Shown here in pieces: positions 24,103 to 44,310 of a stretch of 64,000 nt of DNA (position 1 is the first letter of the stretch; every line of letters starts with the position of its first letter). The stretch lies in assembly GCA_000092065.1 (NCBI GenBank), contig CP000601.1; one strand, 5' to 3'. Position numbers and translations under genes: made by a program. Source of the DNA: Ostreococcus lucimarinus (taxonomy: Eukaryota). The notes below the pieces were generated by a model that searched no databases, was not told the origin of the DNA, and saw only the letters and a list, made by a program, of their open reading frames with translations.

Positions 24103-24879
24103 CTATCGTCTTCGTTTCACGCCCGTGCTCGGACCGTCCTCGTCCATGTCCTCGTCCTCGTCGACGCGCTCGGCGACGTCCGGCTCGGCGGCTTTGAGTT
24201 GTTTCTTCGTCTCCTCTATCGCGGCGTTGAGCTCGTCCTCGCGCGCCAGTGATTCCGCTTTTTCACTCGACACGTACGCAATTTGCTCATTCAAACTCGC
24301 CAACATCGTTTCCGTTATCGCGTGCCACCGCGAGACGTCCGCGATGACGCCGTCGAGCGCGCTCGCTCGCGCGTCTCTCGCCTTCGCGCGTCGAACCCGT
24401 AAAACTTTATTTTTCGGATCGAGCCTTCCCCACACGATTTCTCCCAGGCACTCGTCGACGATGAACTTTTCCATCGCGCGTTCGCTCGTGAACTCCAGCT
24501 CTCGCATCAATCGTACGTACGCGATCGTCCCTCCCTCCGCGCACAGCGCGCACGTCGACAGTCGCTTCAGTTTCGCCTCCTCGCGCGTCGTCAGCGTCGG
24601 CAACTTTTCGTTTGCCGCTCGCGCGCGATATTCGCGCAGCGTGCCGTGCGCGAATATTTCCACCATCGCGCGCACCTCCGCCGCGCACTCGAACCCCTCC
24701 GTGCGCTCCATGGCGTGCAGTATCTTCGTCACGCGCATCGCGTCGCGCGCCTCGAGCGCCTCGCCGAGCGCGTCGCGATCGAGCGTCTTCGTCGTCGCGA
24801 TCGACGTCGCGCACCGCGTCACCGCGCCGTCGTCGGGCGTCATCGACGCCATCGCATCGTCCTCGTCGTCGGCGCGCAT
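24103..24879 (-). CDS. CSN7: COP9 signalosome subunit 7 (CSN7), a PCI-domain protein.
   Basis: PCI/winged-helix block LSTCALCAEGGTIAYVRLMRELEFTSERAMEKFIVDECLGEIVWGRLDPKNKVLRVRRAKARD, co-linear with CSN7 ([45 protein letters not shown]). Coiled-coil, acidic C-terminus. Confidence 0.7.
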   Translation of the reverse strand: MRADDEDDAMASMTPDDGAVTRCATSIATTKTLDRDALGEALEARDAMRVTKILHAMERTEGFECAAEVRAMVEIFAHGTLREYRARAANEKLPTLTTREEAKLKRLSTCALCAEGGTIAYVRLMRELEFTSERAMEKFIVDECLGEIVWGRLDPKNKVLRVRRAKARDARASALDGVIADVSRWHAITETMLASLNEQIAYVSSEKAESLAREDELNAAIEETKKQLKAAEPDVAERVDEDEDMDEDGPSTGVKRRR

Positions 24880-25011
24880 CGCGAGCGAACGACGCGCGCG
24901 AGTGTCGATCGATCGGCCCCGAATCCCAATCGCGCCATCTGTTCATCCATCCATCCACGCATCCATTCTTCTCTCCGCGGTCACATCGCGACGTCGGCGC
25001 GGTCGAGGGCG

Positions 25012-27615
25012 ATGCGAGGCGGACGACGCGACGCGATGCGCGCGCTCGCGCGACGATGCGCGGGCGCGACGACGGGCGCGACGACGGGCGCGACGACGAC
25101 GACGACGACGACGACGACGGCGCGGCGGTTACCGCGCGCGCGCGAGCGACGGGTCGAGCGGGACGCGGGACGCCGCGCGCTGGCGACGCGGGCGGCGCGG
25201 GACGTCGAACTGACGTGCGCCGCGTTCGCGGTGTGGGGGGCGAACACCGCGGTCGGGAAGACGCTGGTGTCGGGAGGACTGGCGCGCGCGGCGCGGAGCG
25301 CGGAGGCGGGGACGCTCTTCGTGAAACCCGTGCAGACGGGATTCCCAGAAGATTCAGACGCCGCGTTCGTGGCGCGCGTGAGCGGTGGCGTGGAGAGCAT
25401 GGGCGAACACGCGGCGGTGGCGGCGGGAGAAACGGCGAGGAAAGGATTAGAGGGCGATCGAGGGGCGTGGGCGCACACCGAGTTTGCGTGGCGACGCCCC
25501 GCGGGGCCGCACGTGAGCGCGGCGGAGGAGGGGAGAGGCGTTTTAGACGATGACATCGTGCGAGCGACGTCGAGATATTTGAGAGAATTCGCGGAAAAAA
25601 TGCGAGCGAACGAATCGGGGCAGCAGCGAGCGTTGGCGCTCGTCGAAACCGCGGGAGGGGTGGCGAGTCCGGGGCCGTCGGGAACGCTGCAATGCGAGCT
25701 TTTGCGCGGGCTACGATTGCCAGCCATACTCGTGGGTGACGGGCGTTTGGGCGGGATATCTGCCACCACGGCCGCGTACGAATCACTGCACGCGAGAGGG
25801 TACGACATCGTCGCCATCGTCATGGCGGACGATGATGGTTTGGCCAATCACAAAGCCATGGCAAAGATTTTGCCGAGCGAAACCCGCGTCTGGGCGCTTC
25901 CGCCTCTGCCCCCAGAAGGACAAGCGGACGCTTGGCTCGAAGACTCAAAGCACACGTTCGACGATTTACTGAAATACATCACAAAATGGCACGACGATCG
26001 CATCAAAACTCTGCAAAGTCTTCCAGACGAGGCTCTGACGAAGATTTGGTGGCCGTTTACGCAGCACGCGATGGTGGAGCGCGACGCCGTCACGGTGATC
26101 GATGGGAGATATGGTGAAGATTTCGCAATCTACGCCCAAAACACGCACTCATCGAAAGATGGCTCCATAGTACTTCGCTTTGATGGTTCAGCGAGTTGGT
26201 GGACGCAAGGTTTGAGTCCAGAATTGCAGCAAGAGTTGGTTCGCACCGCGACGCATGCGGCGGGACGATTCGGGCACGCGATGTTTCCAGAAAACGTGCA
26301 CCAGCCCGCCGTGGACGCGACGACGGCATTATTAGAAGGACCTGGGAAAGGTTGGGCAGCTAGAGCATTTTATTCCGACAACGGATCGACTGCGACAGAG
26401 GTTGGGTTGAAAATGGCTTTTCGCAAGTTTTACGTCGACGCAGGCTTTGTGTCTAAAGACGGCAATCAGAGAGCGAAAGATCTCGTCAACAAAGGAGCCG
26501 ATGACTTACCTCCGCTGCGAATAATAGCATTGGATGGTTCGTATCACGGTGATACTCTCGGTGCGATGGATATGCAATCACCGAGCGTTTTTACGGGTCC
26601 AATGCAAACGCCCTGGTACCAACCTCGCGGACTGTTCCTTCAGCCTCCGAGTTTAGCGATCAGAGAAGGACGTTGGAACGTGGCGTTGCCGCGTGATGGA
26701 TTATTGAACGACGGCGATCGACTCTTCCGCGAAGGCAAAGATGTGGATGAGAACACCAGTTGGACTAGCAAGGAGGCGGCTTTCAACATCGCTGCGCGTC
26801 TCGACAGCCCGCTCGCAAAAGAATACAAAATTGCGATCGACAAAGTCTTAGAACGCGCCGCGAAAGACGCCAAGGATAATAACATGGGTCACGTCGGGGC
26901 TTTAATCATGGAACCCGTGCTTCACGGTGCAGGTGGGATGGTTTTGATTGATCCGTTGTTTCAAAACATTCTCATGAAGTCGTGCCGCGAGCGAAAGATT
27001 CCAGTCGTCTTGGACGAGGTATTTGCTGGCATTTGGCGATTAGGCACGGAAGGTGCGTGGGAAATCATAGGCGAAAAACCCGATATTTCGTGCTACGCAA
27101 AACTTCTCACTGGTGGGCTCATTCCCATGTCAGCCACGCTCGCGACGGCGGATGTCTTCGACGCTTTTTACGGCCCTGGAAAAGCCCAGGGCTTGTTACA
27201 CGGGCACTCGTACACGGCATACCCCATGGGATGCGCCGTGGCGGCGAAAGCGCTTTCTATGTACAAAGACCCCGCGAAAAATCGCAACGTGATCGTCTCA
27301 AAGTCTTCGAGTACGGGCGAGCCTACGTCGGTGCTTCGCGAGCTCTGGGACGAGGACGCGTTGAAGAAAATTTCCACTTTGAGCAACGTTCGCCGAGTCA
27401 TCGGTCAGGGTTGTGTCCTCGCCGTCGAGCTCGAGGTCGAAGGTGAAGGTGGTTATAGCTCCAACGCCGCTCGAGACGTCGTCATGCGTCTTCTTCCCCA
27501 CTCCATCCAAGCGCGTCCTCTGGGTAACGTCGTCTACCTCATGTGCGCGCCGACGACGTCCAAAGACGCGTGCGACGTCCTCTTGAGCGCGCTCGCGACA
27601 GAGCTCGCGGCGTGA
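25012..27615 (+). CDS. BIO3-BIO1: Bifunctional dethiobiotin synthetase / 7,8-diaminopelargonate aminotransferase (BIO3-BIO1 fusion, as in land plants).
   Basis: N-terminal DTBS P-loop VWGANTAVGKTLVSGGLARAA. Class III aminotransferase C-terminal half (GSTATEVGLKMAFRKF; LIMEPVLHGAGGMVLIDPLFQ; DEVFAGIWRLG). The track start at 24646 overlaps CSN7 on the other strand, and the first sensible ATG (MRGGRRDAMRALARR) is at 25012. Confidence 0.85.
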   Translation: MRGGRRDAMRALARRCAGATTGATTGATTTTTTTTTARRLPRARERRVERDAGRRALATRAARDVELTCAAFAVWGANTAVGKTLVSGGLARAARSAEAGTLFVKPVQTGFPEDSDAAFVARVSGGVESMGEHAAVAAGETARKGLEGDRGAWAHTEFAWRRPAGPHVSAAEEGRGVLDDDIVRATSRYLREFAEKMRANESGQQRALALVETAGGVASPGPSGTLQCELLRGLRLPAILVGDGRLGGISATTAAYESLHARGYDIVAIVMADDDGLANHKAMAKILPSETRVWALPPLPPEGQADAWLEDSKHTFDDLLKYITKWHDDRIKTLQSLPDEALTKIWWPFTQHAMVERDAVTVIDGRYGEDFAIYAQNTHSSKDGSIVLRFDGSASWWTQGLSPELQQELVRTATHAAGRFGHAMFPENVHQPAVDATTALLEGPGKGWAARAFYSDNGSTATEVGLKMAFRKFYVDAGFVSKDGNQRAKDLVNKGADDLPPLRIIALDGSYHGDTLGAMDMQSPSVFTGPMQTPWYQPRGLFLQPPSLAIREGRWNVALPRDGLLNDGDRLFREGKDVDENTSWTSKEAAFNIAARLDSPLAKEYKIAIDKVLERAAKDAKDNNMGHVGALIMEPVLHGAGGMVLIDPLFQNILMKSCRERKIPVVLDEVFAGIWRLGTEGAWEIIGEKPDISCYAKLLTGGLIPMSATLATADVFDAFYGPGKAQGLLHGHSYTAYPMGCAVAAKALSMYKDPAKNRNVIVSKSSSTGEPTSVLRELWDEDALKKISTLSNVRRVIGQGCVLAVELEVEGEGGYSSNAARDVVMRLLPHSIQARPLGNVVYLMCAPTTSKDACDVLLSALATELAA

Positions 27616-27857
27616 TGTAACATTATACTATTTTTGTGTTGTCATCGCGTCGTTTTCGCTCCACTCTCTCCCCCCTCGACGACTTCATCGCGTCGTTTGT
27701 CGAGCACAGTCTCTAAAATCTCGTCCCGGTGCCGAGCGCGGTTCGCGAACCTCGACCGACGTCCCATCGCGAGGTCGTTAAAAATAATCGCGATCGGATT
27801 GCGGCGCGTGTTCGTCGTCATAACGCGTCGTCGTGCGTCGTCAGACTCGCCGTCGAC

Positions 27858-29621
27858 ATGGCTGATCAAGTCATCGTCATCGGCGGTGGTCTCGCGGGCC
27901 TGTCCGCGGCGCACACCGTCATCGAACACGGCGCGCGCGTCGTGTTGCTCGACAAATGTTCCTTCCTGGGCGGGAACAGCACGAAGGCGACGAGTGGGAT
28001 TAACGGAGCGTTGACGAAGACGCAGGCGCGGTTGAACATTCCCGACAGCGCTGATAAGTTTGAAGATGATATCATCAAGGGCGCGGCGGGCGTCGGGCAC
28101 ACCGAAGCGCCGGCACACACGGTGCCGCTCGCAAAGGTGCTGGCGCAAGGAAGCGGTTCGAGCGTGGATTGGTTGATGGAAAAGTTTAACCTTGACTTGT
28201 CCCTCGTCGCGCAGCTCGGTGGGCACTCGTTCCCGCGAACGCATCGAGGCAAAGAGCGGTTCCCAGGGTTCACGATCACGTACGCCCTGATGGAGGGGTT
28301 GGAGAAGATTATGGAGGAGACGAATGGGGAAATTGCGCGAATCGTGACCAAAGCCGAGGCAAAGCGGTTGCTAAAGGACGGAAGTGGTACCGTGATCGGG
28401 GTGGAATACGAGAAGGGTGGCGCTTTACATCAAGAGTACGGTCCAGTCGTCATCGCTACCGGTGGTTTCGGTGCGGATTACCAGTCAGACTCGTTGTTGA
28501 AAAAGTACCGACCCGACTTGCAGGCGCTGCCGACGACGAACGGTGACCACTGCACGGGGGATGGAATCAAGATGGCCTTGGCCGTCGGAGCGGATACGAT
28601 CGATATGGAGTCTGTGCAAGTGCATCCTACCGGATTAGTCAACCCTTCAGAGCCAGATTCCAAGGTGAAGTTCTTAGCCGCCGAGGCGCTTCGAGGCGTC
28701 GGAGGCATCCTCCTGGACGCAGACGGGAACAGATTCGCCGATGAGCTCGGTCGACGAGACTACGTCAGTGGTGAAATGAACAGAAACAAAGGGCCTTTCC
28801 GTTTGATTCTGAACGGCAAGGCTTCAAAGGAGATCGAATGGCACTGCAAGCATTACGTCGGGCGAGGCATCATGAAGCGTCACGATACGGGTGCCGAAGT
28901 TGCAAAAGAAATGGGCATCAGTCCACAAAAGCTCGCCGACACCTTTGCCAAGTACAACGAAGCCGCTCGAACGAAGAAGTGTCCGTTCGGTAAAAAGTTT
29001 TTCACCAACGCTCCGTTCGAAATGAATGATTTCTTTCACTCCGCCATCGTGTGCACCGTCGTGCACTACACCATGGGTGGACTCGCCATCAACACTGATT
29101 CGCAAATCGTCGGGTCGTCAGGACCGATTCCTGGTTTATACGGTGCGGGCGAGGTCGTTGGGGGTATTCACGGCCGTAACCGACTCGGTGGTAACTCTCT
29201 GTTGGATTGCGTCGTCTTTGGTCGCGTCGCGGGTGCCTCAGTTTCTCGACACCTCATGGCGACGGCTATCAAGGCGCTTAGATCTGGTCAATCCGTCGCT
29301 CTTAATCGCGTCGCTAACTTGAACGACAAGATCAACCCATCCATGAGCACGGCGTCCGCCGCGCCAGTGTCTAGCGGTGGCGGTGCTCGCGCTATCACCA
29401 TGGATGAAATCGCGAAGCACAACTCCGAGGGCGACCTCTGGGTCATCATCGAGGGCGCCGTTTACGATCTCACGACTTTCTTGCCCGATCATCCAGGTGG
29501 AAAGAAAGCGATCATGCTCTTCGCCGGAAAGGATGCCACTGAAGAGTTCAACATGCTCCACCCTCCGAACGTCTTGAAGAAATATCTCTCTCCAGACGCG
29601 AAGATTGGAACCGTCGCGTGA
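27858..29621 (+). CDS. Soluble FAD-dependent fumarate reductase (OSM1 / flavocytochrome-type) fused to a C-terminal cytochrome b5 domain.
   Basis: The FAD-binding motif VIVIGGGLAGLSAAHTVIEHGARVVLLDKCSFLGGNSTKATSGINGA and the FRD/SDH flavoprotein core. The C-terminal 80 aa (DLWVIIEGAVYDLTTFLPDHPGGKKAIMLFAGKDATEEFNMLHPPNV) is a canonical cyt b5 heme-binding domain. The ATG (MADQVIVIGGG) is at 27858. Confidence 0.85.
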   Translation: MADQVIVIGGGLAGLSAAHTVIEHGARVVLLDKCSFLGGNSTKATSGINGALTKTQARLNIPDSADKFEDDIIKGAAGVGHTEAPAHTVPLAKVLAQGSGSSVDWLMEKFNLDLSLVAQLGGHSFPRTHRGKERFPGFTITYALMEGLEKIMEETNGEIARIVTKAEAKRLLKDGSGTVIGVEYEKGGALHQEYGPVVIATGGFGADYQSDSLLKKYRPDLQALPTTNGDHCTGDGIKMALAVGADTIDMESVQVHPTGLVNPSEPDSKVKFLAAEALRGVGGILLDADGNRFADELGRRDYVSGEMNRNKGPFRLILNGKASKEIEWHCKHYVGRGIMKRHDTGAEVAKEMGISPQKLADTFAKYNEAARTKKCPFGKKFFTNAPFEMNDFFHSAIVCTVVHYTMGGLAINTDSQIVGSSGPIPGLYGAGEVVGGIHGRNRLGGNSLLDCVVFGRVAGASVSRHLMATAIKALRSGQSVALNRVANLNDKINPSMSTASAAPVSSGGGARAITMDEIAKHNSEGDLWVIIEGAVYDLTTFLPDHPGGKKAIMLFAGKDATEEFNMLHPPNVLKKYLSPDAKIGTVA

Positions 29622-29833: not shown

Positions 29834-31741
29834 CTACACTTGAGGTCGCGTTTGAACGATGTAGAGCTGCCCATCTTCAGATATCGCGCCCTCAATGTCT
29901 TGAGGAGACCCACAAAGTGTCTCAATCTCTAGTGCAACCTTGGAGATGGTCGCTAAAAGCTTTTGTCGCTTGGTTTCGTCCGTAATGAGGCTGTCGGTGG
30001 AGTAGTCGACGTTTTTCAACGTTGCCTCCTCCATGGTGATGCTATCGTACAAGCCCGCACCGGCGAACCCTTCCAGGTCTTCGCCGTTACTATCGGATCG
30101 GAAAATAAGTGAATCTTGCTCCATGAAAAGTCCTTTTGACTTCGAAGGGAACCCGACGACGGTCGGATTATCCAAATTGCTCTTGGATGTCTTGAATGAC
30201 AATGCTCGACCAGAAAAGTTACCGACGAGCGCTTCGCCCAGACCACACACAAGCTCACCGTAAATTTCGCTCTTGTCGTTGTTTTGTGGATTCACTGTGT
30301 GCAGTACGAATGCGTATCGCGCACGAACGACGGGCTGACAAAGCACAGCCATGGACAAATCGGCGTGATTCAGCCCTGCCTTTTTGCAACTCAAAACGGC
30401 TCGCTCGTTGTACTTGCTTGCCCATACGCCAAGAATCGTCTTCCATGCCTTTTGACCTTGAGCGCTCGTCACGAGATCTCCCGGCCAACCGAGTGATTCG
30501 GCTTCGAAGGCGACTTTCAAACTTTTCGACAGGTCGGCCGTCGGTTTTAAAGTGGCGATACATGCCTTGACTTCCGCAATGAGTGCTTTGAAGCCAACGC
30601 CGTCTGTGGAGTCGTACGCTTCAAGTTGTTTGACTAACTCTGCAATTTGTCTCTTTGCGCCTGCATTCTCAGGGACATCAAGAACTGCATCGAACGTACC
30701 AAAAGGCATCGCAACGGACGGCGGTAACTTTATGAGGTTTGAGACTCGACCGCGAAGGAGTTGCAAGTTTCGAGATTTGCCGCCGACAAGCTCTGGGGTA
30801 AACTCTGATGACGTGGCGACAAATTTTCCTTGAAACGGACGTTTGATGATCGATATGTCACTCGAAACGGAATCGCTCGACGATGTTGCTATGACCTCCG
30901 CGTCGGTACCGATGATGCCGTCGACAACATCGAATTGCAAATCGTCGCCCTGCGCAGACGGCTTGAGTTGCACGGATTTCCCGGTCATGGCTTTCATCTG
31001 TTCTAGAACATTCACGTCAAACAAAGTAGCGAAAAGAACCTTTTCGTTACGGGCGCGAACGGCGCAGTGAGACAGCACATCTGGCATATCAGGAGTAACG
31101 ATCGCGACCACGCCAACCGGAATGTCCTCTTCGCCACCAACGCGGTCGGCAATAATGACAGTCGGTTGAGAATACTTGACATTTTGCACATCGGCGAGGG
31201 ATGCGACCGAAACAATCACGCCACTACACTCGGCGTTACTGACGATTTGCCAGCTGCCCATGTTCGCAACATTACGAATAACTGGGTCGAGAACTCTGAG
31301 CATTTGAGAAAGTGGCGCCGCTGCAGTTCCACGGATGATTTCTTCCGAGAACAGGTCGAGCACGTGTCCATCCACACCGAGCTTGTTTCCCATGCTCTGT
31401 GCCGTCGGCTGAAGTGCGTCAATATAGCGCTGAGAAATTTCGCCAAGCGAGTTTTGCAGTCGATCGCACACCGCTTTTGCCTGCAAAGCCCAATCTCCTT
31501 GGCGTCTCGCTGCTTCAAGCACATTTTGCCACTCTTTCAGGCAAATGCGCAACTCGTGGTTGCCGCTTGCAGACATGCAAAGATTCTCGAGGACGAGGCT
31601 CATGATTCTCAAAACTTCGTAAGGAGCTCGAGTAGGCAAAGATTCAAGAGATCCTTCGATGACCGAACGCGCCGCACCTTCTAACGCAAGGTTGCGCAGA
31701 CCTTCGCAACCTTCGCGACCTTCGCCGAAACGCTCGAGCAC
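29834..31741 (-). CDS. Alpha-glucan water dikinase-like protein (GWD/PWD family). It carries the catalytic phosphohistidine domain and the C-terminal nucleotide-binding domain only.
   Basis: The phosphohistidine motif DVLSHCAVRARNEKVLFATLFD (potato GWD has DVLSHVSVRARNGKVCFATCFD). The C-terminal PPDK_N-like domain ends ISEDGQLYIVQTRPQV. The track start at 31741 is GTG, the first ATG is at 31603, and an in-frame stop lies 39 nt upstream. Only 166 nt separate it from the next gene on the same strand, so there is no room for CBM or N-terminal repeat regions. Confidence 0.8.
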   Translation of the reverse strand: MLERFGEGREGCEGLRNLALEGAARSVIEGSLESLPTRAPYEVLRIMSLVLENLCMSASGNHELRICLKEWQNVLEAARRQGDWALQAKAVCDRLQNSLGEISQRYIDALQPTAQSMGNKLGVDGHVLDLFSEEIIRGTAAAPLSQMLRVLDPVIRNVANMGSWQIVSNAECSGVIVSVASLADVQNVKYSQPTVIIADRVGGEEDIPVGVVAIVTPDMPDVLSHCAVRARNEKVLFATLFDVNVLEQMKAMTGKSVQLKPSAQGDDLQFDVVDGIIGTDAEVIATSSSDSVSSDISIIKRPFQGKFVATSSEFTPELVGGKSRNLQLLRGRVSNLIKLPPSVAMPFGTFDAVLDVPENAGAKRQIAELVKQLEAYDSTDGVGFKALIAEVKACIATLKPTADLSKSLKVAFEAESLGWPGDLVTSAQGQKAWKTILGVWASKYNERAVLSCKKAGLNHADLSMAVLCQPVVRARYAFVLHTVNPQNNDKSEIYGELVCGLGEALVGNFSGRALSFKTSKSNLDNPTVVGFPSKSKGLFMEQDSLIFRSDSNGEDLEGFAGAGLYDSITMEEATLKNVDYSTDSLITDETKRQKLLATISKVALEIETLCGSPQDIEGAISEDGQLYIVQTRPQV

Positions 31742-31910
31742 TTGTTGCTCATGCGCCGAACCGAGCGGGAGGAAATTTCAGCGCGCGCGCGCGCGCGTAG
31801 TGACATTTTCAGCGAAACAGAATTCAACTCAAACTTCATCGACAGTCTCGTCAACTCTGGCGTTCTCTAGTGATGATAGGTATTAGCATTGCAATGCAAC
31901 TCTCGACGCT

Positions 31911-32537
31911 TCATTCTGATTCCGAATCGTCTTCTTCCTCGTCCTCGTCTTCGTCTTCTTCCTCTGAACTCTCTTCCTCGTCTTCGTCCTCGTCTTCCTC
32001 TTCCTCCTCTTCATCATCCTCGTCTTCTTCCTCCTCTTCGTCGTCGTCGTCGTCGTCGTCATCTTCCTCTTCGTCCTCCTCGGACATTTCTTCGTCGTCT
32101 TCCCCTTCGTCCTCTTCCTCCTCGTCCCCGGCCTCGCCAGAGATTAACTTTTCCAAATTCTTCATCTCCGCCTCCAAGTACTCCTTACGCTTCAGCTTCT
32201 TCGTCTGTTGCGCATCCATGCGAGTGCCCTCGCTTCGCTTTCGCTCCAAGTCTTCAATCTGCCGCAGCTTCTTCGCGAGCGCCCTGTACCTGACTTCCAA
32301 CGCCCCGTATTTCACCCCACCTTCCCGTCGCATCGCTTGGTCGTTCGACGCTCGCGCGCTGTTCCCAGACATTTTCAACGTGTCTCGCGCCGCCTTCTCA
32401 GCCTTGCGTTTCTGCGCGTACGTGATTCCCGGCTTTTTCGCGCTCTCCAACTTGGCGATTTGTTTGCGCGCCTTCGCGTTGTTCGGCACCGCCTCGCGCT
32501 TCGTGCGCGCCTTGTTCGTGCGATTTTGCGACCCCAT
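31911..32537 (-). CDS. Basic coiled-coil protein with a long poly-D/E C-terminal tail (nucleolar or rRNA-processing type). Family uncertain.
   Basis: A K/R-rich N-terminal half (MGSQNRTNKARTKREAVPNNAKARKQIAKLESAKK...) followed by about 80 aa of D/E encoded by (GAA/GAC)n. The plus-strand poly-Ser ORF 31870..32721 is its mirror image. Confidence 0.5.
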   Translation of the reverse strand: MGSQNRTNKARTKREAVPNNAKARKQIAKLESAKKPGITYAQKRKAEKAARDTLKMSGNSARASNDQAMRREGGVKYGALEVRYRALAKKLRQIEDLERKRSEGTRMDAQQTKKLKRKEYLEAEMKNLEKLISGEAGDEEEEDEGEDDEEMSEEDEEEDDDDDDDDEEEEEDEDDEEEEEEDEDEDEEESSEEEDEDEDEEEDDSESE

Positions 32538-32649
32538 CGCGTCGTGCGTTACGTTTTCTACTTCGACGTTCGCGCGCTTCGCTTTCGCAGAGCGTCGCGG
32601 GAAGCGGACGCGTCTCGAAGTGCGCCGCCGCCGCCGCCGTTTTTTGGTA

Positions 32650-33339
32650 TTACAGCGCCGTGGCTCGCGGATACGGCGAATCGTCGTCTTCTGCGTCGTC
32701 TACGTCTACGTCTACGTCTAAATCGTCGTCTAAATCGTCGTCTAATAATAACTTCGCCCTGTTCCAGAACGATTCGAGGTCGACGCTCGCGTCGTCGTCG
32801 TCGTCGTCGTCCCGGTCGTCGTGTCGCGGCGATTCCAGTTCCGGCGTTCCGGCGTCCACTCGCGCGCTTCGTCTTCCCATCGATCCCATCCACTTCCCAA
32901 CGCGTCGCGCGTCGCGCAAGCGCTCGATGATCACTGACCGCATCCGAGTCGCCGTCTTCGCGACCGCGGTCGCGCAGTGCTCCCCCGCGCGTTCGCGTTC
33001 GCGTTCGCCGCGCGTCCTCGGCGCGAGCGTCTCCAGCGCGCGCACCAGGTCCACGAACTCCCTCGCGCTCGTCCCGCGCGCGCGCTTATCGGGATGATGC
33101 TCTAACGCTTTTCTTCGAAACGCCCTTCGCGCTTCGACGCGCACGCGCGCGGCGTCGCGCGCGTCGCGTCGTTCGTTCGCGGCCGTTACCAGCCCGAGCG
33201 TTTTCATCGCCTTCGCGCGCGCCGCATCGCTCGCGAACGCGCGCTCGACGGCGGGGCGGACGCACGCGGCGTCGTATGTTATCGCGATCAGCGCCACCAA
33301 CGCGGAGACGCAGGCGCCGACGCGCGCGGCGCGCTTCAT
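32650..33339 (-). CDS. DnaJ (J-domain) protein with an N-terminal signal/anchor.
   Basis: The J-domain with the HPD motif (AMKTLGLVTAANERRDARDAARVRVEARRAFRRKALEHHPDKRARG). The likely start MKRAARVGACVSALVALIAITY is at 33339, and the track start at 33522 lies in upstream low complexity. Confidence 0.7.
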   Translation of the reverse strand: MKRAARVGACVSALVALIAITYDAACVRPAVERAFASDAARAKAMKTLGLVTAANERRDARDAARVRVEARRAFRRKALEHHPDKRARGTSAREFVDLVRALETLAPRTRGERERERAGEHCATAVAKTATRMRSVIIERLRDARRVGKWMGSMGRRSARVDAGTPELESPRHDDRDDDDDDDASVDLESFWNRAKLLLDDDLDDDLDVDVDVDDAEDDDSPYPRATAL

Positions 33340-33381
33340 TGAGTGACGCGCGGGAGATATTTCGAGCGGGACGCGATCGTC

Positions 33382-34587
33382 ATGACATCGCTTCGTTGCG
33401 TCGCGCGCGACGCCGCGTTCGCGCGATCGACGCGCGTGACGCGTCGATCGAGGCGCGCGGGAACGGTGCGCGCGATGTCGGACGGCATGGACGCGTTCAT
33501 GCCGCCGCACCGCGCGAATCAATCGTCATCGTCAACGACATCGTCTTCGACGGCGACGGCGACGATGACGAGCGGAAGCGAAGACCTGGATCCCGTCGTC
33601 GCGCGATCTCGCGAGGTGCTCGAGATGGCCACGGTCGGGGACTTGCTGCGCGTCACCGCGGAAGCGGCGGATGGGAGCGGACGCGATCGCGCGGATGAAG
33701 ACGAGACGCGAGACGCGCTGCGGTGGTTCGTCGTGAAGCGAGTGGGGATGAGCACGGGTGGACGACAGCTCGTCGAGGGTGAGTTAGAGGGGAAGAAGGC
33801 GCAGATATTGGATCAGGGCGGGGCGAATCAGGCGCGGATTGGGATCTCGGGAGCGTTGCTGGACGAGCGAACGCCGCTGACGAGGCTGAAAAACGTGCGA
33901 GACGCGGACAAGTTTAAACGCGCGATTAAGTCGTACGAGCGACGGGTCGAACGGGAAAGCGATGCTTTAACGCTGGTTTCGAGCGTGGATAAGGCGCTGA
34001 CGTTGAATGGGTTAGAACAAGCGGTGAAGAAGAACCCGCGCTTTTGGACGGAGGGCGACGGCGCGCACTCGAGGCGAGTCATCAAGGACCCCACGGAGAG
34101 CGCGACGAAGATGACGGGGGAACTCTTGGCGCTGAAACACGGTCACCGAGATGTGGTGTTGATGCAAATCGTGTGCGACTGGACGGATGCGCTCGAAGAT
34201 AGCGTTCGCGCCCCGTTCGCAGCGGCGACGCTTGAGGACATGTTGACGCAGGATGCGTCTATTTCAATGAGACTTTCAGAAGCGAGGTATCAAGTGGGAG
34301 AGGATAAAGATGGTAACCCCGAGTTCTCCAACGGCATCACAGCGGTAATTTATCGCGAGACCGCCAAGGAAACCGCGAACGTGCTCGTCTCCATGGGCGT
34401 TCAGGCGACGCGAAACATCGCAGGAGCGTTTCAGCAAGCCTTGGTCGGCGTCGCGCTCGGCTACACCGATGAAAATATCGCGCACCACATTCGCCGACTT
34501 CACAACGAAGACAAGTTGACGGATGAAGATATATTTGCTTTGATTATCACCGCGAGGGATGAAAAGGAAGCACTGAACGCAAAGTAG
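33382..34587 (+). CDS. Conserved-looking protein of unknown function (about 400 aa) with an organellar-type presequence.
   Basis: A non-repetitive ORF of normal composition (…VDKALTLNGLEQAVKKNPRFWTEGDGAHSRRVIKDPTESATKMTGELLALKHGHRDVVLMQIVCDW…). It is head-to-head with the DnaJ gene, about 40 bp apart. The start is either 33382 (MTSLRCVARDAAF) or 33475. Confidence 0.5.
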   Translation: MTSLRCVARDAAFARSTRVTRRSRRAGTVRAMSDGMDAFMPPHRANQSSSSTTSSSTATATMTSGSEDLDPVVARSREVLEMATVGDLLRVTAEAADGSGRDRADEDETRDALRWFVVKRVGMSTGGRQLVEGELEGKKAQILDQGGANQARIGISGALLDERTPLTRLKNVRDADKFKRAIKSYERRVERESDALTLVSSVDKALTLNGLEQAVKKNPRFWTEGDGAHSRRVIKDPTESATKMTGELLALKHGHRDVVLMQIVCDWTDALEDSVRAPFAAATLEDMLTQDASISMRLSEARYQVGEDKDGNPEFSNGITAVIYRETAKETANVLVSMGVQATRNIAGAFQQALVGVALGYTDENIAHHIRRLHNEDKLTDEDIFALIITARDEKEALNAK

Positions 34588-34647
34588 TACGCAACGCGCG
34601 CGAGCTGTAAAACACGAGAAGCAAGTAATCTCTACGCACTCTACAAT

Positions 34648-35412
34648 CTACATCACAATCTCTAAAAACGAACACCTTTCACACTTTGCGACGCACGCAT
34701 CTAAACCGTACTCATCGCGCACGCTAAACCGAAGCCCACCAGCGTTGCCGCACCCGCGTGAGACGTGTGCCTCAAATGTCTCCGCCAAACGTCGCTTCAA
34801 GTACGTCAACCCTACGTTTTCATCGGCACGCGCGATTCTAAAGTCCCCACACGCGCAAAATAACACGTGCCTGTTGTAAAGCACCCGTCTCGTGGCGCAC
34901 ACCGGACACAAGACGTCTTCGCCGCTCGACTCGGCGTTCTCGCCGACGTCCTCCGCCTCGGGAAATTTCCATCGCTCAAACGCCTCAATCGCCCGCGTCA
35001 ACCGCTCCTGTTCTTCCTCGTCTTCGCGATATTCTACCTCTGCGCGCTCGCTCATCAATCGCTCTTCGTTCGCGAGTTCTCGTTCCATCGCGTCTTGCAT
35101 CGCGAGCAACACGCGCTCGACTTCAGCCTCCGTCAAGCGCGCGTAATCATCCTCGTCCTCGTCGTCCTCGTCGAAATCATCGACGTCGGCGTCTCTGACG
35201 CCGCGCACCGAACCCACGCGTCCTCCTCTCACCTTTCTGCGCTTCGCGTGCTGTTCGAGCACGATTTCGCGACACCGCGCGGCGTCGAACGACGACGCCG
35301 TCCCGCTCGCGCTCGCCTTCTCATCCGCACCGCCGCGCGTCCGCGCGCGCTTACCCACGAGTCCGAGGACGACGCGCACGCACGCGCTTTCGAGCGATTC
35401 GTCCGCGCGCAT
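34648..35412 (-). CDS. RPAIN: RPA-interacting protein (RPAIN/RIP)-like zinc-ribbon protein.
   Basis: The acidic middle part and the C-terminal CPVCATRRVLYNRHVLFCACGDFRIA ... CVAKCERCSFLEIVM parallel human RPAIN ([26 protein letters not shown] ... CLACDTWAVIL). Confidence 0.7.
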   Translation of the reverse strand: MRADESLESACVRVVLGLVGKRARTRGGADEKASASGTASSFDAARCREIVLEQHAKRRKVRGGRVGSVRGVRDADVDDFDEDDEDEDDYARLTEAEVERVLLAMQDAMERELANEERLMSERAEVEYREDEEEQERLTRAIEAFERWKFPEAEDVGENAESSGEDVLCPVCATRRVLYNRHVLFCACGDFRIARADENVGLTYLKRRLAETFEAHVSRGCGNAGGLRFSVRDEYGLDACVAKCERCSFLEIVM

Positions 35413-35588
35413 GCCGACGCGCGCGCGCGACGCGCTGCGGCGTCGCGGTTCGCGCGCGCGCGCGGTTTGAACTCGAAATTTTTCGCCGTCGCGCGGCGAT
35501 CGTGTGACTGTTCGCCTTTTGTGACTGTTTTTGTGACTGTTCTTATCCTCGTGCCTCACTCGACGCCGCGACGACGCTCGATCGCGCG

Positions 35589-36587
35589 ATGGCGCGCGCG
35601 AAAAAGCGCGCGCGGACGATCGCGCGCGCGGCGCTCGTCGTCTCGACGGCGCTCGCGATCGAGGGCGCGCGCGCGACGACGTTCACCGCGGACGGCCGCT
35701 CGTGCAAATGGCCGCTGGAGCTCGCGGAGGACGTCTTCGTGAACGAGTGCGTGCCCTACGGACGAGACGGGGCGCTGTGGTGCGTGGCGGAGGAGGACGG
35801 AAAATGGGGCGTGTGCGCGGACTTGGATTTCGACGCGAGCGCGCGCGGGAAGGTTTCGATGGAGGCCGCGGCGCGGGCGGCGACGACGCTGGCGCGCGAG
35901 GAAGAGCTAACGTACGAAGCGAGGCGACAGGCGATGGAAGTGTTGGAATCAACGTCGACGCTGATGTTGAAGGCGTTGGCGCGCGAAAGCATCGAAATCG
36001 AGGGTAAGATCGTAGAGAATCCTGTCGTTGAATTTCTAGCCAAACGTCAGAGAGAACGACCCGACAACTTCAACGCCGTGAACGACCCGACAACTTCAAC
36101 GCCGGCGCCGGCGTCGACGACTTCCCCACCTTTACAACGGCCGCCGCCTTCGCCTCCGCCGCCTTCGCCACCGCCACTTTCGCCACCGCCACCGAATCAA
36201 CCGCGGTGCGTCGCGAGAACGGATATTCGATGGGAGAGCCCGCAAGCAGACGGATCTTCAGAGTTTGGCATGGACATTTACATCGTGCTCGCATCGGGTG
36301 AAAGCATCAGCGGCGGGTGGAAGATTTTGTTCAAGTTTGCGCGCGATGGTGTTGTGTTATACTCAAGTAGCGCGTACGGTGCGGACGCGCGCACGATGTA
36401 CGCGCCGGAGGACGGTCGCGTCTTCGAGTTGCGCGATCGCGGATACGACGCGTACATCGCGTTGTACTCCACGAAGCGGATCGGATTCAATGTGCGCACG
36501 CGCTCGGCGCAATCCTTACGCTTGTCGACTCTCGCAGTGAACGGTGAGGATTGCGAGATTGTATCCGAGTCTTCGATTCGCGCGTGA
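35589..36587 (+). CDS. Secreted protein with a signal peptide, a Cys/Trp-containing N-terminal module and an extensin-like PPSPPPPSPPP stretch. Probably a cell-surface protein.
   Basis: MARAKKRARTIARAALVVSTALAIEGARA is a signal peptide. CKWPLELAEDVFVNECVPYGRDGALWCVAEEDGKWGVCADLDFD is a Cys-rich module. The Pro-rich segment is PPPSPPPPSPPPLSPPPP. Confidence 0.6.
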   Translation: MARAKKRARTIARAALVVSTALAIEGARATTFTADGRSCKWPLELAEDVFVNECVPYGRDGALWCVAEEDGKWGVCADLDFDASARGKVSMEAAARAATTLAREEELTYEARRQAMEVLESTSTLMLKALARESIEIEGKIVENPVVEFLAKRQRERPDNFNAVNDPTTSTPAPASTTSPPLQRPPPSPPPPSPPPLSPPPPNQPRCVARTDIRWESPQADGSSEFGMDIYIVLASGESISGGWKILFKFARDGVVLYSSSAYGADARTMYAPEDGRVFELRDRGYDAYIALYSTKRIGFNVRTRSAQSLRLSTLAVNGEDCEIVSESSIRA

Positions 36588-36662
36588 CCGCACCGCGTTG
36601 AAAAGCAAATCAAGTCGCGCTGCAGCAGCATTAAAAAATAAAATAAAACAATCCATCGCGAT

Positions 36663-37736
36663 CTAAACTTGATGCATCGCCTTGACTTCGGTGAGAACAT
36701 TTCGCACTTTATCATCGGGCTCGTCTCTCAGCCCGGGAATCTCGCCGACGTCCGTTGAGGCGTCGCCCAAGAGCGCGCGGAAAGAATCCGCGACGCCTTC
36801 GCTCAAACCCACCAAATCATACCCGCCCTCTAATAAGAACACGATTTTCCCGCCGCACATCTCATTCGCCAGTTCTTTCAACTTTGTGCAAAGACGATGG
36901 TACGTTCCCGTGCGAAACGTCAACCCAGCGAGAGGATCTCGCCAGTGCGCGTCGTAGCCGGCACTGACGATGATGAAGTCGGGTTGGAACCGCGCCGCCG
37001 CCGGAACGACGATTTCTTCCAAAGCGCTCAACACCGCCTTATCACCGCTTCCCGGAGGCAAAGGTATATTAATAGTCGCACCCAGACCATCGCCTTCGCC
37101 CATATCCGTAATCTTCCCCGTCCCCGGATAGCTCCCGTCCTCGTGCGTGGAGATGAACAGCACGGAATCGTCGTCTCGGAAAATATCATTCGTACCGTTA
37201 CCGTGGTGCACGTCGTAATCGAAAATGAGCACTTTTTTATGCCCTCTAAGCTGCGCGTGTCTCGCCGCCGCCGCCGCGGTGCCGACCAAACAAAATCCCA
37301 TCGCCCCTCGCGGCACCGCGTGGTGTCCCGGTGGGCGTATCAAACCAAACGCGCTCGGCGCCTTTTCTTTCGTCTCCTTCGCGCGATCGATCACCTCATC
37401 CACCAATCGCGTCGCCGCACCGACGCCTAGCATCACGTCTTGAAAGCTCGACGGCGTGCAGTACGTCGGTGCGGTGTCTAAATTCGTCGGCGCTCGCGTG
37501 GCGCACAACAACTCGAGCCCGTTGCAGTAATTCTTCGCGTGCACACGCTCGAGCGCCTTTTTCGTCGCCGGCACGACGTCTGTGATCTCCAACACCTCAC
37601 CCGGTCTCGCGGCGGGGGTCAGAGCGCCCGCCTCGAGGGCGTCTAAGATGGCGGGCACGCGAGCGTTGCTCTCCGGGTGCCCCAACTGCACGTGCTCCAG
37701 CGCGGCGGAGGTGGCAAAGAGCAGCGACGGGGACGA

Positions 37737-37767
<31 letters not shown>

Positions 37768-37862
37768 ATTCGTCGCGCGCGAGACGGGTGACGCTCGGCG
37801 CGACGCGACGCGCGCGGTGACGCGGGCGCGACGCGAGTGAGATGGACGCGAGGACGCGCCAT
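36663..37862 (-). CDS. Class II (HDA14-like) histone deacetylase-family protein with an organellar presequence.
   Basis: The HDAC catalytic core GFCLVGTAAAAARHAQLRGHKKVLIFDYDVHHGNGTNDIF...ISTHEDGSYPGTGKITDMGEGDGLGATINIPLPPGSGD. The ATG is at 37862. Confidence 0.85.
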
Positions 37863-38209
37863 GGGGTCGAAGAGTGAAGTTGGGCGCTATTGCAACTCGA
37901 GCTAGAAATGGCCGCATTGATCGCATCGTCGCGTCGTCGTCGTCGCCATGGGCGCGTGCGCGAGCATATGCGAGAGCACGCCGGACGTGCCGGCGAACAT
38001 CATCGCCGACCCGGAGGTGCGCGCTCGGACGCGCGCGCGTCGCGCCGAGGCGCCGTCGAATCGAATCGGACGTCGCGCGCGATGATGGATGCGTCGTGGC
38101 GAACGAGTGAACGCGCGCGCCGCGACGCGACGCGACGAACGACTGACGACGAGACGAACGCGCGACGCGCCACCAGGGACCGAGCAAATTCGTCGTCAAG
38201 TCGTGCTCG

Positions 38210-39004
38210 ATGTTCAACAAGGACTACGAAGTCTATCGAGACGAAGTGGGACCGAACAATCGCTGGCTGTTTCTGAATCGCGAAGGGAAGGGTTTCTTCG
38301 ACCCGACTGGGTACATTGACTTGGAAAACTACACGCGAATCGACCCGAACGATAAGAAGAAAGGGCAAGTGCTGTGGAAGTTGAAGTACAACGAAAAACC
38401 GCACTTTGATATGGGGATGTCGCTCGGAGCCGACTCGGAGGACGACGGCGACGATAACCCCAACGTTCGAACCGTGACGAACATGTTCAAGCAGATGATG
38501 CAACAGATGCAGATGGGAGAGAACAGGTTTTACTCTATGAAATGGCGCACGTTTTCCGAGGCCAAGTTGAAGTCGGTGAAGACCCCGGGCGGGGCGTACT
38601 CGGTGAAGATCAAAGCCAAAGGCTACTGCACGCGTCAAGTGTCGGTGCACTATACCAGAGACGAACAAGGACACCAACGTCGGAATGTGAACGTCACCGA
38701 CAAGGAGTACGTGACGAAGATTTCGTACAAGATCAAGACCGCCGATGGGACGACGATCGATCGATTCGATCTCTTCTGCTGCGAAGGCTCCGACTTGAAG
38801 TGGGAGTGCGCCGCCTTCACCGCCGAGCTCCGCGGCGGTTGGATTTCCAAGTACCCGCACGAGATCACGACCAAGCCCGGCATCGATCCCGGTTTCGCCT
38901 TGCTCTTCGCGCACGTTTGCGTCACTGAGTTTGCACCGGACGAGATCAAGAAGGACTTGAAGCCCAACTGGAATCAGTGCCCCGGATACATCAATCCGTA
39001 TTGA
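38210..39004 (+). CDS. Lysine-rich protein of unknown function (264 aa) in a locally lower-GC segment.
   Basis: A clean ATG-to-stop ORF whose composition (K, Y, N and F rich, much lower GC) differs sharply from the flanking genes. I recognise no domain. Confidence 0.5.
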   Translation: MFNKDYEVYRDEVGPNNRWLFLNREGKGFFDPTGYIDLENYTRIDPNDKKKGQVLWKLKYNEKPHFDMGMSLGADSEDDGDDNPNVRTVTNMFKQMMQQMQMGENRFYSMKWRTFSEAKLKSVKTPGGAYSVKIKAKGYCTRQVSVHYTRDEQGHQRRNVNVTDKEYVTKISYKIKTADGTTIDRFDLFCCEGSDLKWECAAFTAELRGGWISKYPHEITTKPGIDPGFALLFAHVCVTEFAPDEIKKDLKPNWNQCPGYINPY

Positions 39005-39276
39005 TGAAACCAACGTTCCGCCGCGTTCCGTTCCGGCGCGCGACGTGACATGCGTCTACGAATGACTCTATTTACGGTTAATAAGATAAATATATAATCA
39101 TACACGCACTCCTTTGCGTCGTCCATCGCCGTTCGATCTCGCGCGTCTCGTCGCGATGGACGTCTCGCGCCCCCGGTCGGTTGCCCGGGGCCCGGGTGTC
39201 CGTCCAACGAGATCGCCCACGGATCGTTCGCCTTCGGTCGTCACTCGCGCGCGCGGTCGACTTCCCGCCGCTCGCG

Positions 39277-39798
39277 ATGGTGGCCGTCGGCGACCAATTC
39301 CCCGACGTCGTCGCGCAATCGCACGAGCCCTCCTGGCCGACGCCGGTGAAGATGCGCGCGCGTCTCGCCGGTAAAAAATCGCTCGTCGTCGGCCTGCCCG
39401 GCGCGTTCACGCCGACGTGATCGACGTGTCAGGTCCCGGGATACCTCGCGGGGCAGGACGCGCTGCGCGCGAGCGGGATCGATGAGGTGCTGGTGATGTG
39501 CGTGAACGACGCCGCCGTCATGGGGGCGTGGGCGATCGATCAAAAGATTCAAGGGTCAAACATTTCGTTCCTCGCGGATCCGAATTCGGTGATCACGAAG
39601 GCGCTGGACGTGGAGCTCGTCGCGCCCGGACCGTGCGCGAAGCTCGGACCGAAGCGATGCAAACGCTTCGCGATGTACGTCGACGATGGGGTGATCAAGG
39701 TGCTGAACGTGAGCGAAGCGCCGGACGATCCCGCGGGAGACGCGCGACCGGAGGCGTCGTGCATCGACAACATGTTGAAGGAAATCGCGGCGTTGTAG
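39277..39798 (+). CDS. PRX: Type II peroxiredoxin (Prx5-like) with an in-frame TGA at 39418..39420 in the peroxidatic-Cys position. Candidate selenocysteine-containing peroxiredoxin.
   Basis: Two same-frame track ORFs (39181..39420 and 39487..39798) are separated only by this TGA. Read through, the protein is ...KKSLVVGLPGAFTPT-U-STCQVPGYLAGQDALRASGIDEVLVMCVNDAAVMGAWA...RFAMYVDDGVIKVLNV..., which aligns residue for residue with Prx5/PrxII GVPGAFTPGCSKTHLPGF, and U falls on the peroxidatic Cys. Confidence 0.75.
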
Positions 39799-40370
39799 AC
39801 GCGCGCGATGACTTTGACGGGACGAAGACGACGAGGTTCAACGCGATGGTTGAGGATGTGCGCGTACGTACGTGACGCGACGCAGCGAAAGGGCTGATGT
39901 TATTGGCTCGCTGCGTCGTCGATGGAAACGAACGCGGCGTCCGACGCCGCCGTCGCCGGAACGCGACGTCGTCTTCTCGAGTTTACTTTATATACAGAAT
40001 AAGCGTCGTGCCGCGTCTCGCGACGCGCGGACAAAGGCGGCGTTAGGCGGAGTTTCGTCGATCGATCGTTTTGATTTCCGTTTCTTTCGTCCCCCGAACC
40101 TTTGTGAATACATTTACGCAACGACGAAGAAAAATAAAACCGCGGCGCTCGTCTTCTCGTCCTCCGCCAAACGAACGAACGAATGATGCGCTCTTAAAAT
40201 TTAAAAATTAAAAACGGTGATTAATTGCTATTGCTGCGCTGCGCGTGCGAGGAGATGGATACAGTGAATTGAAATTTGTTGTAATCGACGCGCCGGGCGT
40301 TTCAGCCGCCCCGACGGGCGTTTCAGCCGCCCCGACGCGAAATTCGAGGCGCGGGATTCGTCCGCGTCTC

Positions 40371-41564: not shown

Positions 41565-41997
41565 GCCGGGTCGTCGTCGCCGCGTCGCGCCCCGTCGCGT
41601 CGGTCGCGCGTCGCGTCGAGTCGCGATGTGCGACGCCGTCGCGCGCGCGCGGACGAGGCACCCTGGATGCGGTCGTCGGTCGTCCCGTCACTTCCGGGTA
41701 TTTAGGGTTTAGGGTCGGGCGCGCCGGTCGTCGCTTCCGGGTGTGCGCGCGCGCGACGCGTCCGTCGCGTCCGGCGCGCGCGGCGCGCGAGTTCGCGACG
41801 CGATTCGATCGCGGCGACGGCGACGACGCGGATACGACGCGCGCGCGCGCGACGGGGGCGGATCGCGCGCGCGCGCGCGACGCGCGCGTCGAATTCCGAT
41901 TCGCGCGCCCGAGGCGGCGTTCGATTGGATTGGATTGGATTCGATCGATCGACGCGAGCGACGGCGCGGATCTCGACCGGCGCGATCACCGCGCGCG

Positions 41998-43371: not shown

Positions 43372-43438
43372 CGCGGCGAGTCGCTGCTTTCGTGCGTAGT
43401 CGATTTAATTGTTTTACAGCAAAGCGAGGACGGCCACT

Positions 43439-43882
43439 TCATTCGAACTTCCGCACGTTCGACATCTCGTCTAACATCGCTTGAATCCCTTCCTCGGTCA
43501 ACCCGCGATCTTCCTGCTCCAAGCTCGGCACTAAAGTCTTCGCCTCGTCCCAATCCTGCGGCTTCAAGTTTGAGATCGCCGCGCCTTCAAAGTCGTGCAA
43601 CCCTGAATTGTTGTGTAATTCCCGAATAGCCGCCGCCGCCGTGCTGCTCGTGTTCCCGCTGAACCGCTTCGCGTACGCTAACGTCTTCTCGAACACCCGC
43701 GTGCGCGTCGTCGACGTCTCCTCCGCTTGTTCGGCGTCGTCGGCGACTTTCGACTCGCACACGATCTTCACCTCGGCGAGCGACAAGCAGTTGGCGTCGT
43801 CGAAATCGGGACCGAGTCGCAGTTCCCCGGCGTCCTCGACGTCTTCCGCGGACTTTCTTCCTATGCACAGCGCGGCGGACAT
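43439..43882 (-). CDS. RPB4: RNA polymerase II subunit RPB4.
   Basis: VFEKTLAYAKRFSGNTSSTAAAAIRELHNNSGLHDFEGAAISNLKPQDWDEAKTLVPSLEQEDRGLTEEGIQAMLDEMSNVRKFE is co-linear with human and yeast RPB4. The ATG is at 43882. Confidence 0.75.
   Translation of the reverse strand: MSAALCIGRKSAEDVEDAGELRLGPDFDDANCLSLAEVKIVCESKVADDAEQAEETSTTRTRVFEKTLAYAKRFSGNTSSTAAAAIRELHNNSGLHDFEGAAISNLKPQDWDEAKTLVPSLEQEDRGLTEEGIQAMLDEMSNVRKFE

Positions 43883-44266: not shown

Positions 44267-44310
<44 letters not shown>

Follow-up and report, generated by a model that had tools for sequence, protein, structure and literature searches.

A cytochrome b5 domain fused to a predicted soluble fumarate reductase in the green alga Ostreococcus lucimarinus

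Introduction

We present here an analysis of a gene of Ostreococcus lucimarinus whose product joins a predicted fumarate reductase (FRD) domain to a cytochrome b5 (b5) domain. The gene lies at 27858..29621 on the + strand of a 64,000-nucleotide stretch of contig CP000601.1 (GenBank assembly GCA_000092065.1), which is called the window below and to which all positions refer. We read the product, with a probability of about 60%, as a soluble two-cofactor flavocytochrome in which electrons would pass from an external reductase to the b5 haem, then to flavin adenine dinucleotide (FAD) and finally to fumarate. An earlier note on the window, made from its letters alone, had pointed to the fusion, and several of its claims are taken up where the evidence bears on them.

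Results

The gene occupies an uninterrupted open reading frame (ORF) on the + strand (27729..29621). Its first ATG, at 27858, opens a complete, intron-less coding sequence of 587 codons (27858..29621) that ends with a TGA at 29619-29621, and no in-frame ATG occurs from the upstream stop (27714) to 27858. The product is identical to the "predicted protein" of O. lucimarinus CCE9901 (ABO99387.1/ABP01219.1, equal to XP_001421094.1/XP_001422860.1). Independent assemblies of metagenomes and genomes contain the identical 587-residue product too, in 502-503 indexed blocks, and a single 587-residue gene was called on all 24 of the environmental Ostreococcus contigs read. Nine loci were compared at the DNA level; six differ by 0-2 nt within the gene, and the remaining three are 99.7-99.9% identical across ~14 kb. 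The O. tauri orthologue (614 amino acids, 91% identical) is annotated as "cytochrome b5" and keeps both domains. Ostreococcus-like relatives at 83-93% identity likewise retain FRD and b5 in one protein, and complete fused ORFs are contained in the MMETSP and EukProt transcriptomes. Because the same gene recurs on independent assemblies, orthologues carry both domains and the transcripts are fused, the FRD-b5 fusion is a real gene and not an accident of assembly.

The earlier note had described one ORF at these coordinates, combining a soluble FRD core with a canonical b5 domain that bears an HPGG motif, and it is right on every one of these points. The domain scan that it had proposed as a check returned both FAD_binding_2 and Cyt-b5. 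The stop or frame change on resequencing that it had named as fatal to the fusion is absent from the independent assemblies, so the fusion stands. It had also taken the host to be a green alga, as the identity with XP_001421094.1 confirms.

The N-terminal part of the protein matches the Pfam family FAD_binding_2 at residues 5-448 (27870..29201, + strand as for all features of the gene), with E 1.4e-70 and 239 bits. The other Pfam matches in this part are generic Rossmann-fold families over roughly the first 50 residues, with nothing else significant. The NCBIfam model TIGR01813, "flavocytochrome c", is matched over profile positions 1-443 of 444 with 376.9 bits, above its curated cut-off of 285.45. 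TIGR01812, the model of the Complex II-type subunits SdhA and FrdA, gives 153 bits, below its cut-off of 567, which places the protein outside that group; the L-aspartate oxidase model likewise scores far under its cut-off. The solved structure of Osm1 from yeast (5glg) is matched with E 7e-89.

An AlphaFold2 model was built from an alignment of 67 homologous sequences. It has a mean predicted local distance difference test (pLDDT) of 88.4 and a predicted template modelling score (pTM) of 0.85, with disorder confined to residues 480-508. The modelled flavin and clamp domains, of the Fcc3/Osm1 type, superpose on Osm1 with a TM-score of 0.90 (normalised to Osm1), a root-mean-square deviation of 2.4 Å and 38% identity; against Fcc3 the TM-score is 0.70-0.73. 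Among the structural matches of the model there is no solved structure that spans both domains.

The Rossmann dinucleotide-binding motif, GGGLAG (residues 9-14, 27882..27899), has five positions, G9, G10, G11, L12 and G14, that are invariant in the 67-homologue alignment. Asn40 (codon 27975..27977), invariant as well, stands, in a pairwise alignment to the FrdA N-terminus, at what we take to be the site of the covalent FAD-linking His of E. coli FrdA. Residues 25-80 contain no His. From this invariant Asn at the FrdA/SdhA His site, FAD is predicted to be bound non-covalently, as in Fcc3 and Osm1.

Six catalytic residues of Osm1 and Fcc3 could be located by alignment to Osm1. His256 (codon 28623..28625) corresponds to the substrate-binding His of Osm1 H281 and Fcc3 H365. 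Glu276 and Arg279, the ends of an EALR motif (28683..28694), correspond to the proton-pathway residues Osm1 E301/R304 and Fcc3 E378/R381. Arg300 (28755..28757) corresponds to the catalytic proton donor, Osm1 R326 or Fcc3 R402, and aligns with the sole position that separates wild-type Osm1 (5glg) from the R326A mutant (6ku6). His403 (29064..29066) matches Osm1 H435 and Fcc3 H504, and Arg442 (29181..29183) matches Osm1 R477 and Fcc3 R544. All six residues, H256, E276, R279, R300, H403 and R442, are present in the protein and invariant in the alignment. Their counterparts, in Osm1 H281, E301, R304, R326, H435 and R477, are essential by mutagenesis in both Osm1 and Fcc3 (PMC6242907). The N-terminal ~450 residues are thus predicted to form a fumarate reductase of the Osm1/Fcc3 type in which the site that binds fumarate and delivers protons is complete.

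The C-terminal part of the protein matches Pfam Cyt-b5 (PF00173) at residues 514-586 (29397..29615), covering 73 of 74 profile positions with E 6.6e-25 and 87.4 bits against a threshold of 23.7. The first predicted axial haem ligand is His545 (codon 29490..29492) of the HPGG motif (residues 545-548), which is invariant in the 67 homologues. The second is His568 (29559..29561), in the motif MLHPP ~23 residues past the HPGG His and conserved in at least 90% of the homologues. Both align with conserved histidines of cytochrome b2 and of 4b8n, the cytochrome b5 of prasinovirus OtV-2, where the counterpart of His568 is the His of an LH[PA]PN motif. These two are also the nearest solved relatives of the domain: 4b8n matches with E 1.4e-35 and is 73% identical, whereas for the yeast flavocytochrome b2 haem domain the values are E 1e-23 and 54%. 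Microsomal b5 proteins are much farther away, at E ~1e-14.

The two domains are separated by a Ser/Ala/Gly-rich stretch (residues 480-508, 29295..29381) in which pLDDT falls below 50 at residues 480-486, 488-491 and 493-508, with confidently modelled domains on either side. Its sequence and length vary among homologues. The C-terminal ~75 residues are therefore predicted to be a bis-histidine b5 domain carried on a flexible, disordered linker of ~30 residues.

A test for a tail anchor found no C-terminal hydrophobic anchor downstream of the b5 domain, and the protein stops one residue past that domain. No segment of the protein is transmembrane-like, the highest 19-residue hydropathy being 1.54, in a Rossmann strand. 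A mitochondrial or plastid presequence was considered and rejected, as there is no upstream in-frame ATG and the Rossmann fold begins at residue 4. With neither a transmembrane-like segment nor an anchor nor an N-terminal extension, the protein is probably soluble and, by default, cytosolic, as judged from its sequence. No CxxCH motif occurs in the protein, which sets it apart from flavocytochromes c3 of the Shewanella type. The Pfam scan gave no NAD(P)H-binding or b5-reductase module (no ApbE, FAD_binding_6 or NAD_binding_1).

The two-domain architecture is common. Both PF00890 and PF00173 are carried by 110 of the 120 best homologue clusters, and the exceptions among these mostly look truncated or concatenated. 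Most full-length members are 56-93% identical to the window protein over 97-100% of the query and have the order FRD then b5. Besides the green algae O. tauri and Cymbomonas, the same architecture is found in the fungus Rhizoctonia (under the automatic UniProt label "fumarate reductase (NADH)"), in the Amoebozoa Luapelamoeba and Echinostelium, in Rigifila of the CRuMs, in the ciliate Protocruzia and in the syndinian Amoebophrya. Named members across these groups are 56-67% identical to the window protein over full length. Fusarium g7601 has the same InterPro domain combination according to its annotation line in a published proteomics table. Since the same domains recur in fungi, Amoebozoa, CRuMs, ciliates and Syndiniales, the combination of FRD and b5 is a common eukaryotic architecture and no green-algal peculiarity; the rarity implied when the fusion was first remarked on has given way to a broad distribution. 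Judged by sequence identity, the b5-less yeast enzymes look like a divergent branch, as Osm1 is just 38% identical to the window protein and the fused members are 56-67% identical.

Neither the protein nor its combination of domains is new to the databases: the exact sequence is in GenBank, and UniProt, Pfam and JGI tag both domains. The full-text literature searched contained no study that characterises an FRD-b5 enzyme.

Close relatives of the b5 domain also occur in viruses. In IMG/VR, 36 contigs of viral origin carry a gene for such a b5. Their GC content is 36-43%, one of them measures 196 kb, and the encoded proteins share 74-82% identity with the b5 domain of the window, the matching region being 29385-29618. 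In the two viral loci inspected (L005, 2962-3240, and L024, 2962-3237), the b5 forms an ORF by itself, 91-92 residues long, and the neighbouring genes differ. The viral copies are 74-76% identical to the C-terminus of the O. tauri "cytochrome b5", a protein that has an FRD domain. The b5 of OtV-2 (4b8n, entered in the PDB as "cytochrome b5 - host origin") has been crystallised and described as a haem protein with b5 spectra that could stand in for yeast cytochrome b5 or pass reducing equivalents to a P450 (CYP51). Reviews give its function as unknown. One review states that it "lacks a reductase domain" that the host version has and that it was acquired from the host (PMC5371798). The "host version" of that review is probably an orthologue of the gene described here, in which case the fusion in Ostreococcus has already been noticed in print. 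Going by these identities, the host FRD-b5 gene looks like the source of the viral b5. This would give the enigmatic prasinovirus protein a concrete candidate partner in the host, either the FRD flavin domain or its reductase.

Longer homologues of ~1000 residues, 54-58% identical to the window protein, were found in Amoebophrya sp. A25 (CAD7937985.1) and in marine metagenomes. They consist of FRD, two successive b5 domains and a multi-pass domain of ~280 residues with five invariant histidines. The only family that this last domain matches is TIGR02046 (SdhC-b558), with E 2e-7 and 6e-10. TIGR02046 describes the dihaem cytochrome b anchor of type-B succinate:quinone and quinol:fumarate reductases. 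The domain order suggests that the b5 domains of the long homologues lie between a quinone-linked cytochrome and the flavin, that is, in the place of the iron-sulfur (Fe-S) subunit. The long homologues may thus be single-polypeptide, quinone-linked fumarate/succinate oxidoreductases that do without an Fe-S subunit.

Twenty large ORFs of the window were scanned, and they are unrelated housekeeping genes. The neighbours include genes for a WD40 protein, Vps36, a class II tRNA synthetase, a Mur-ligase-type enzyme, a b5-fused desaturase, a rhodanese and ADA2. Further neighbours are a BIO3-BIO1-like gene and genes for glucan water dikinase, an HDAC, an alternative oxidase (AOX), a GOST-type membrane protein, FBPase, an M16 peptidase and an ankyrin protein. 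None of the twenty is a PFL, a hydrogenase or another fermentative gene, and none encodes an Fe-S subunit; the link to anaerobic metabolism that the earlier note had proposed finds no support in the window. Gene neighbourhood carries little functional information in eukaryotes, and with unrelated housekeeping genes as neighbours it was dropped as a clue to function.

There is no second FRD-b5 copy within the window. The only other b5-like match, at 15946-16068, is the b5 of the desaturase gene (15373-17238, + strand), which encodes an N-terminal Cyt-b5 and a fatty-acid desaturase domain of the front-end type; this b5 is 34% identical to that of the fusion over 41 residues. Upstream of the FRD-b5 gene, 24646-27615 (+ strand) holds the BIO3-BIO1-like ORF, with an AAA_26 dethiobiotin-synthase-like domain and a class-III aminotransferase. 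It is 989 codons long, and about the first 120 of these are probably untranslated, since the calls on matching contigs are of 862-867 residues. Farther left, an ORF of 1142 codons (4904-8332, + strand) has no Pfam match at E <= 1e-6. Part of it falls in the window's GC peak at 4001-6000, which reaches 70% against ~55-60% for most other bins. It may be a gene or an effect of this base composition.

To the right of the FRD-b5 gene, the window departs from the environmental contigs. Those with an identical FRD-b5 gene are collinear with it from 17845 or further left to 31690, and they then run on through a 1394-residue dikinase gene. The stretch 31715-47967 is collinear with another set of environmental contigs, which alone runs into an ALG11-like gene. 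Between the two lies a junction at 31691-31714 with a 24-bp filler (GTTGCGCAGACCTTCGCAACCTTC). At this junction the glucan-water-dikinase gene (29834-31690, minus strand) is shortened to its C-terminal ~620 codons and the ALG11-like gene to ~155 nt. The window joins two wild-type loci here, and both flanking genes are truncated. An intron behind the break in the dikinase gene was rejected, because the comparison contigs are genomic DNA and the breakpoint has no splice-acceptor AG. The AOX gene (40371-41564, minus strand; AOX family, E 3e-101), which encodes a redox-valve enzyme, lies beyond the junction and was thus brought near the FRD-b5 gene by the rearrangement. The 587-residue protein has two accession pairs in O. 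lucimarinus CCE9901 (ABO99387.1/XP_001421094.1 and ABP01219.1/XP_001422860.1). Two accessions for one protein, together with the rearrangement junction, suggest that the gene is present in two identical copies and that this one lies in a recent segmentally duplicated block. Chromosome 21 of O. lucimarinus may be made up of pieces of this kind.

Discussion

In what follows, that the protein binds haem and FAD, which way electrons flow and from what donor, where the protein resides and what it does in the cell are all inferred. The b5 haem would receive electrons from another protein, a reductase that is most plausibly NADH-cytochrome b5 reductase. The mobile b5 domain, on its disordered linker, would swing to the flavin domain and hand single electrons to FAD. 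The FAD hydroquinone would then convert fumarate to succinate, with Arg300 as the proton donor. The b5 domain would thereby take the place of the tetrahaem c domain in Fcc3, of the covalent flavin mononucleotide (FMN) module in the trypanosomatid and Klebsiella enzymes and of the Fe-S subunit in membrane FRDs. The enzyme would serve as a cytosolic electron sink that yields succinate.

An external reductase is needed, since the protein lacks an NAD(P)H module and NAD(P)H cannot reduce a b5 haem directly. The "self-contained electron input" of the earlier note has to be given up for this reason, as FAD_binding_2 and Cyt-b5 are the only modules present and neither an NAD(P)H nor a b5-reductase module accompanies them. 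The fumarate-reducing direction is favoured by an active site shared with characterised reductases and by the predicted non-covalent FAD. In the soluble FRDs that have been characterised, a one-electron relay sits beside the flavin domain. A relay role for the b5 domain is favoured by the c-haems of Fcc3 and by the covalent FMN and b5-reductase-like domain of the trypanosomatid enzyme FRDg, and it is further supported by the long alveolate homologues, in which FRD, two b5 domains and a membrane domain stand in one chain. The fusion of a trypanosomatid FRD to a b5-reductase-like domain also links an input of the b5-reductase type to this family of flavoproteins.

Several points weigh against this mechanism. 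A typical b5 haem has a potential of ~0 mV, well above the ~-150 mV of the FAD in Fcc3, so the step from haem to flavin would run uphill; the b5 of nitrate reductase is of a low-potential type, and a similar b5 here would remove the problem. The closest b5 of known function, that of flavocytochrome b2 (54%), moves electrons off a flavin. The donor reductase is a putative one, and the literature searched offers no biochemical data on an FRD-b5 enzyme. The AlphaFold2 evidence extends to the fold of each domain and to pLDDT, but not to how the domains lie towards one another. In the long homologues, the match to TIGR02046 falls under that model's curated cut-off of 96 bits.

The likeness to yeast flavocytochrome b2, an L-lactate:cytochrome c oxidoreductase, invites the opposite direction of flow, with the enzyme acting as a dehydrogenase that passes electrons from a substrate such as succinate to FAD, on to the b5 haem and out to an external acceptor (cytochrome c, a desaturase or a P450). 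Apart from the viral copy, no b5 comes nearer to the one here than the haem domain of flavocytochrome b2 (E 1e-23, 54%). That domain receives its electrons from the flavin and gives them to cytochrome c, and it too is a tethered mobile domain with a disordered hinge. The membrane-anchored long homologues can equally be read as succinate:quinone reductases. This direction is nevertheless improbable. The invariant Asn predicts non-covalent FAD, and it is established from FrdA/SdhA mutants that enzymes with non-covalent FAD keep fumarate reduction and lose succinate oxidation. Osm1 and Fcc3, which have the nearest catalytic domains among characterised proteins, are fumarate reductases, and an intermembrane-space or other targeting signal is absent from the window protein.

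We also think it unlikely that the catalytic core works as in Osm1, re-oxidising free reduced flavins or a flavin-dependent sulfhydryl oxidase with fumarate, and that the b5 domain is a minor second input or a means of haem-dependent regulation. Osm1 is the best match in both sequence and fold, and it is fully active without a haem domain, using free FADH2/FMNH2 and Ero1 (PMC6242907). The b5 domain and both haem ligands are, however, kept in 110 of the 120 best clusters across supergroups, at 56-62% whole-protein identity, and such retention across several eukaryotic supergroups argues for a core catalytic role. The window protein has no signal for the endoplasmic reticulum (ER) or mitochondria, unlike Osm1, and its relatives gain further b5 domains and a membrane cytochrome instead of dropping the haem.

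The substrate might instead be another alpha,beta-unsaturated acid (urocanate, acrylate or a cinnamate-type acid), as it is for several bacterial FAD_binding_2 relatives. Urocanate reductase (6t85, E 3.6e-48) belongs to this family, as does acrylate reductase; a vinyl phenol reductase model also matches, and labels like "fumarate reductase (NADH)" are given automatically in UniProt. All four dicarboxylate-binding and both proton-pathway residues of Fcc3 and Osm1 are nonetheless invariant, and identity to Osm1 is 38% against 30% to urocanate reductase, which makes a different substrate very unlikely. The possibility that the b5 part is in truth a gene of its own, fused only through an error of annotation or assembly, can be set aside: the ORF is unbroken, the identical gene is called in independent assemblies and both domains occur in orthologues and in complete transcripts, while no support was found for a separate gene and the stand-alone b5 of 73-82% identity that does exist is found in viruses.

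The fumarate-reducing relay that we prefer can be extended, tentatively and with more doubt than confidence, to the whole family. FRD-b5 would then be a widespread eukaryotic class in which b5 replaces the c-haem, FMN or Fe-S relay, and it would exist in three forms: a soluble cytosolic form in Ostreococcus, fungi and amoebae, a single-polypeptide membrane form fused to an SdhC-like dihaem cytochrome b in Syndiniales, and a viral offshoot. Prasinoviruses would, in this view, have taken over only the b5 module of this host gene, so as to tap or divert electrons meant for the host enzyme while they infect the cell. If true, this bears on the question of what the viral cytochrome b5 does. With conservation this high (56-62% across supergroups), the family offers enzymologists an inexpensive subject, and its study would round out the known ways in which soluble FRDs are wired to electron donors.

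The catalytic part of the window protein resembles S. cerevisiae Osm1/Frd1 (5glg) in its flavin and clamp domains, its six catalytic residues and its predicted non-covalent FAD. Osm1 has no haem domain, as the earlier note had said, is supplied with electrons by free reduced flavins or by Ero1 and is targeted to the ER and mitochondria (PMC6242907), whereas the window protein adds a C-terminal b5 and bears no targeting signal. With Shewanella Fcc3 (1qjd, 1d4c), it shares a soluble single polypeptide, TIGR01813, the catalytic residues and the pairing of a haem module with non-covalent FAD. Fcc3 is a periplasmic protein with N-terminal tetrahaem c-type haems, again in agreement with what had been claimed (PMC6242907); the eukaryotic protein is predicted to have one C-terminal b-type haem in a b5 fold.

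The trypanosomatid enzyme FRDg is likewise a soluble eukaryotic FRD of the flavocytochrome-c family with an input module drawn from the b5/b5-reductase system. The earlier note had credited the trypanosomatid enzymes with both b5-reductase and b5-like modules. The b5-reductase-like part is correct and the b5 part is not, as the paper on T. brucei FRDg gives ApbE, FRD and cytochrome-b5-reductase-like domains and no b5 domain. The window protein differs in lacking ApbE and the b5-reductase domain and has a b5 haem domain in their stead.

On the b5 side, yeast flavocytochrome b2 (1fcb) also has a b5-fold haem domain hinged flexibly to a flavin enzyme; in that protein an FMN TIM barrel makes up the flavin part, the haem domain lies at the N-terminus and the site is the mitochondrial intermembrane space. 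Nitrate reductase, sulfite oxidase and the front-end desaturases share the plan of a built-in b5 one-electron relay beside a catalytic domain, with other catalytic partners and distantly related b5 domains. The b5 of prasinovirus OtV-2 (4b8n) comes closest in sequence, being 73% identical to residues 510-586 with the same haem ligands and no anchor, but it stands alone, with no flavoprotein part.

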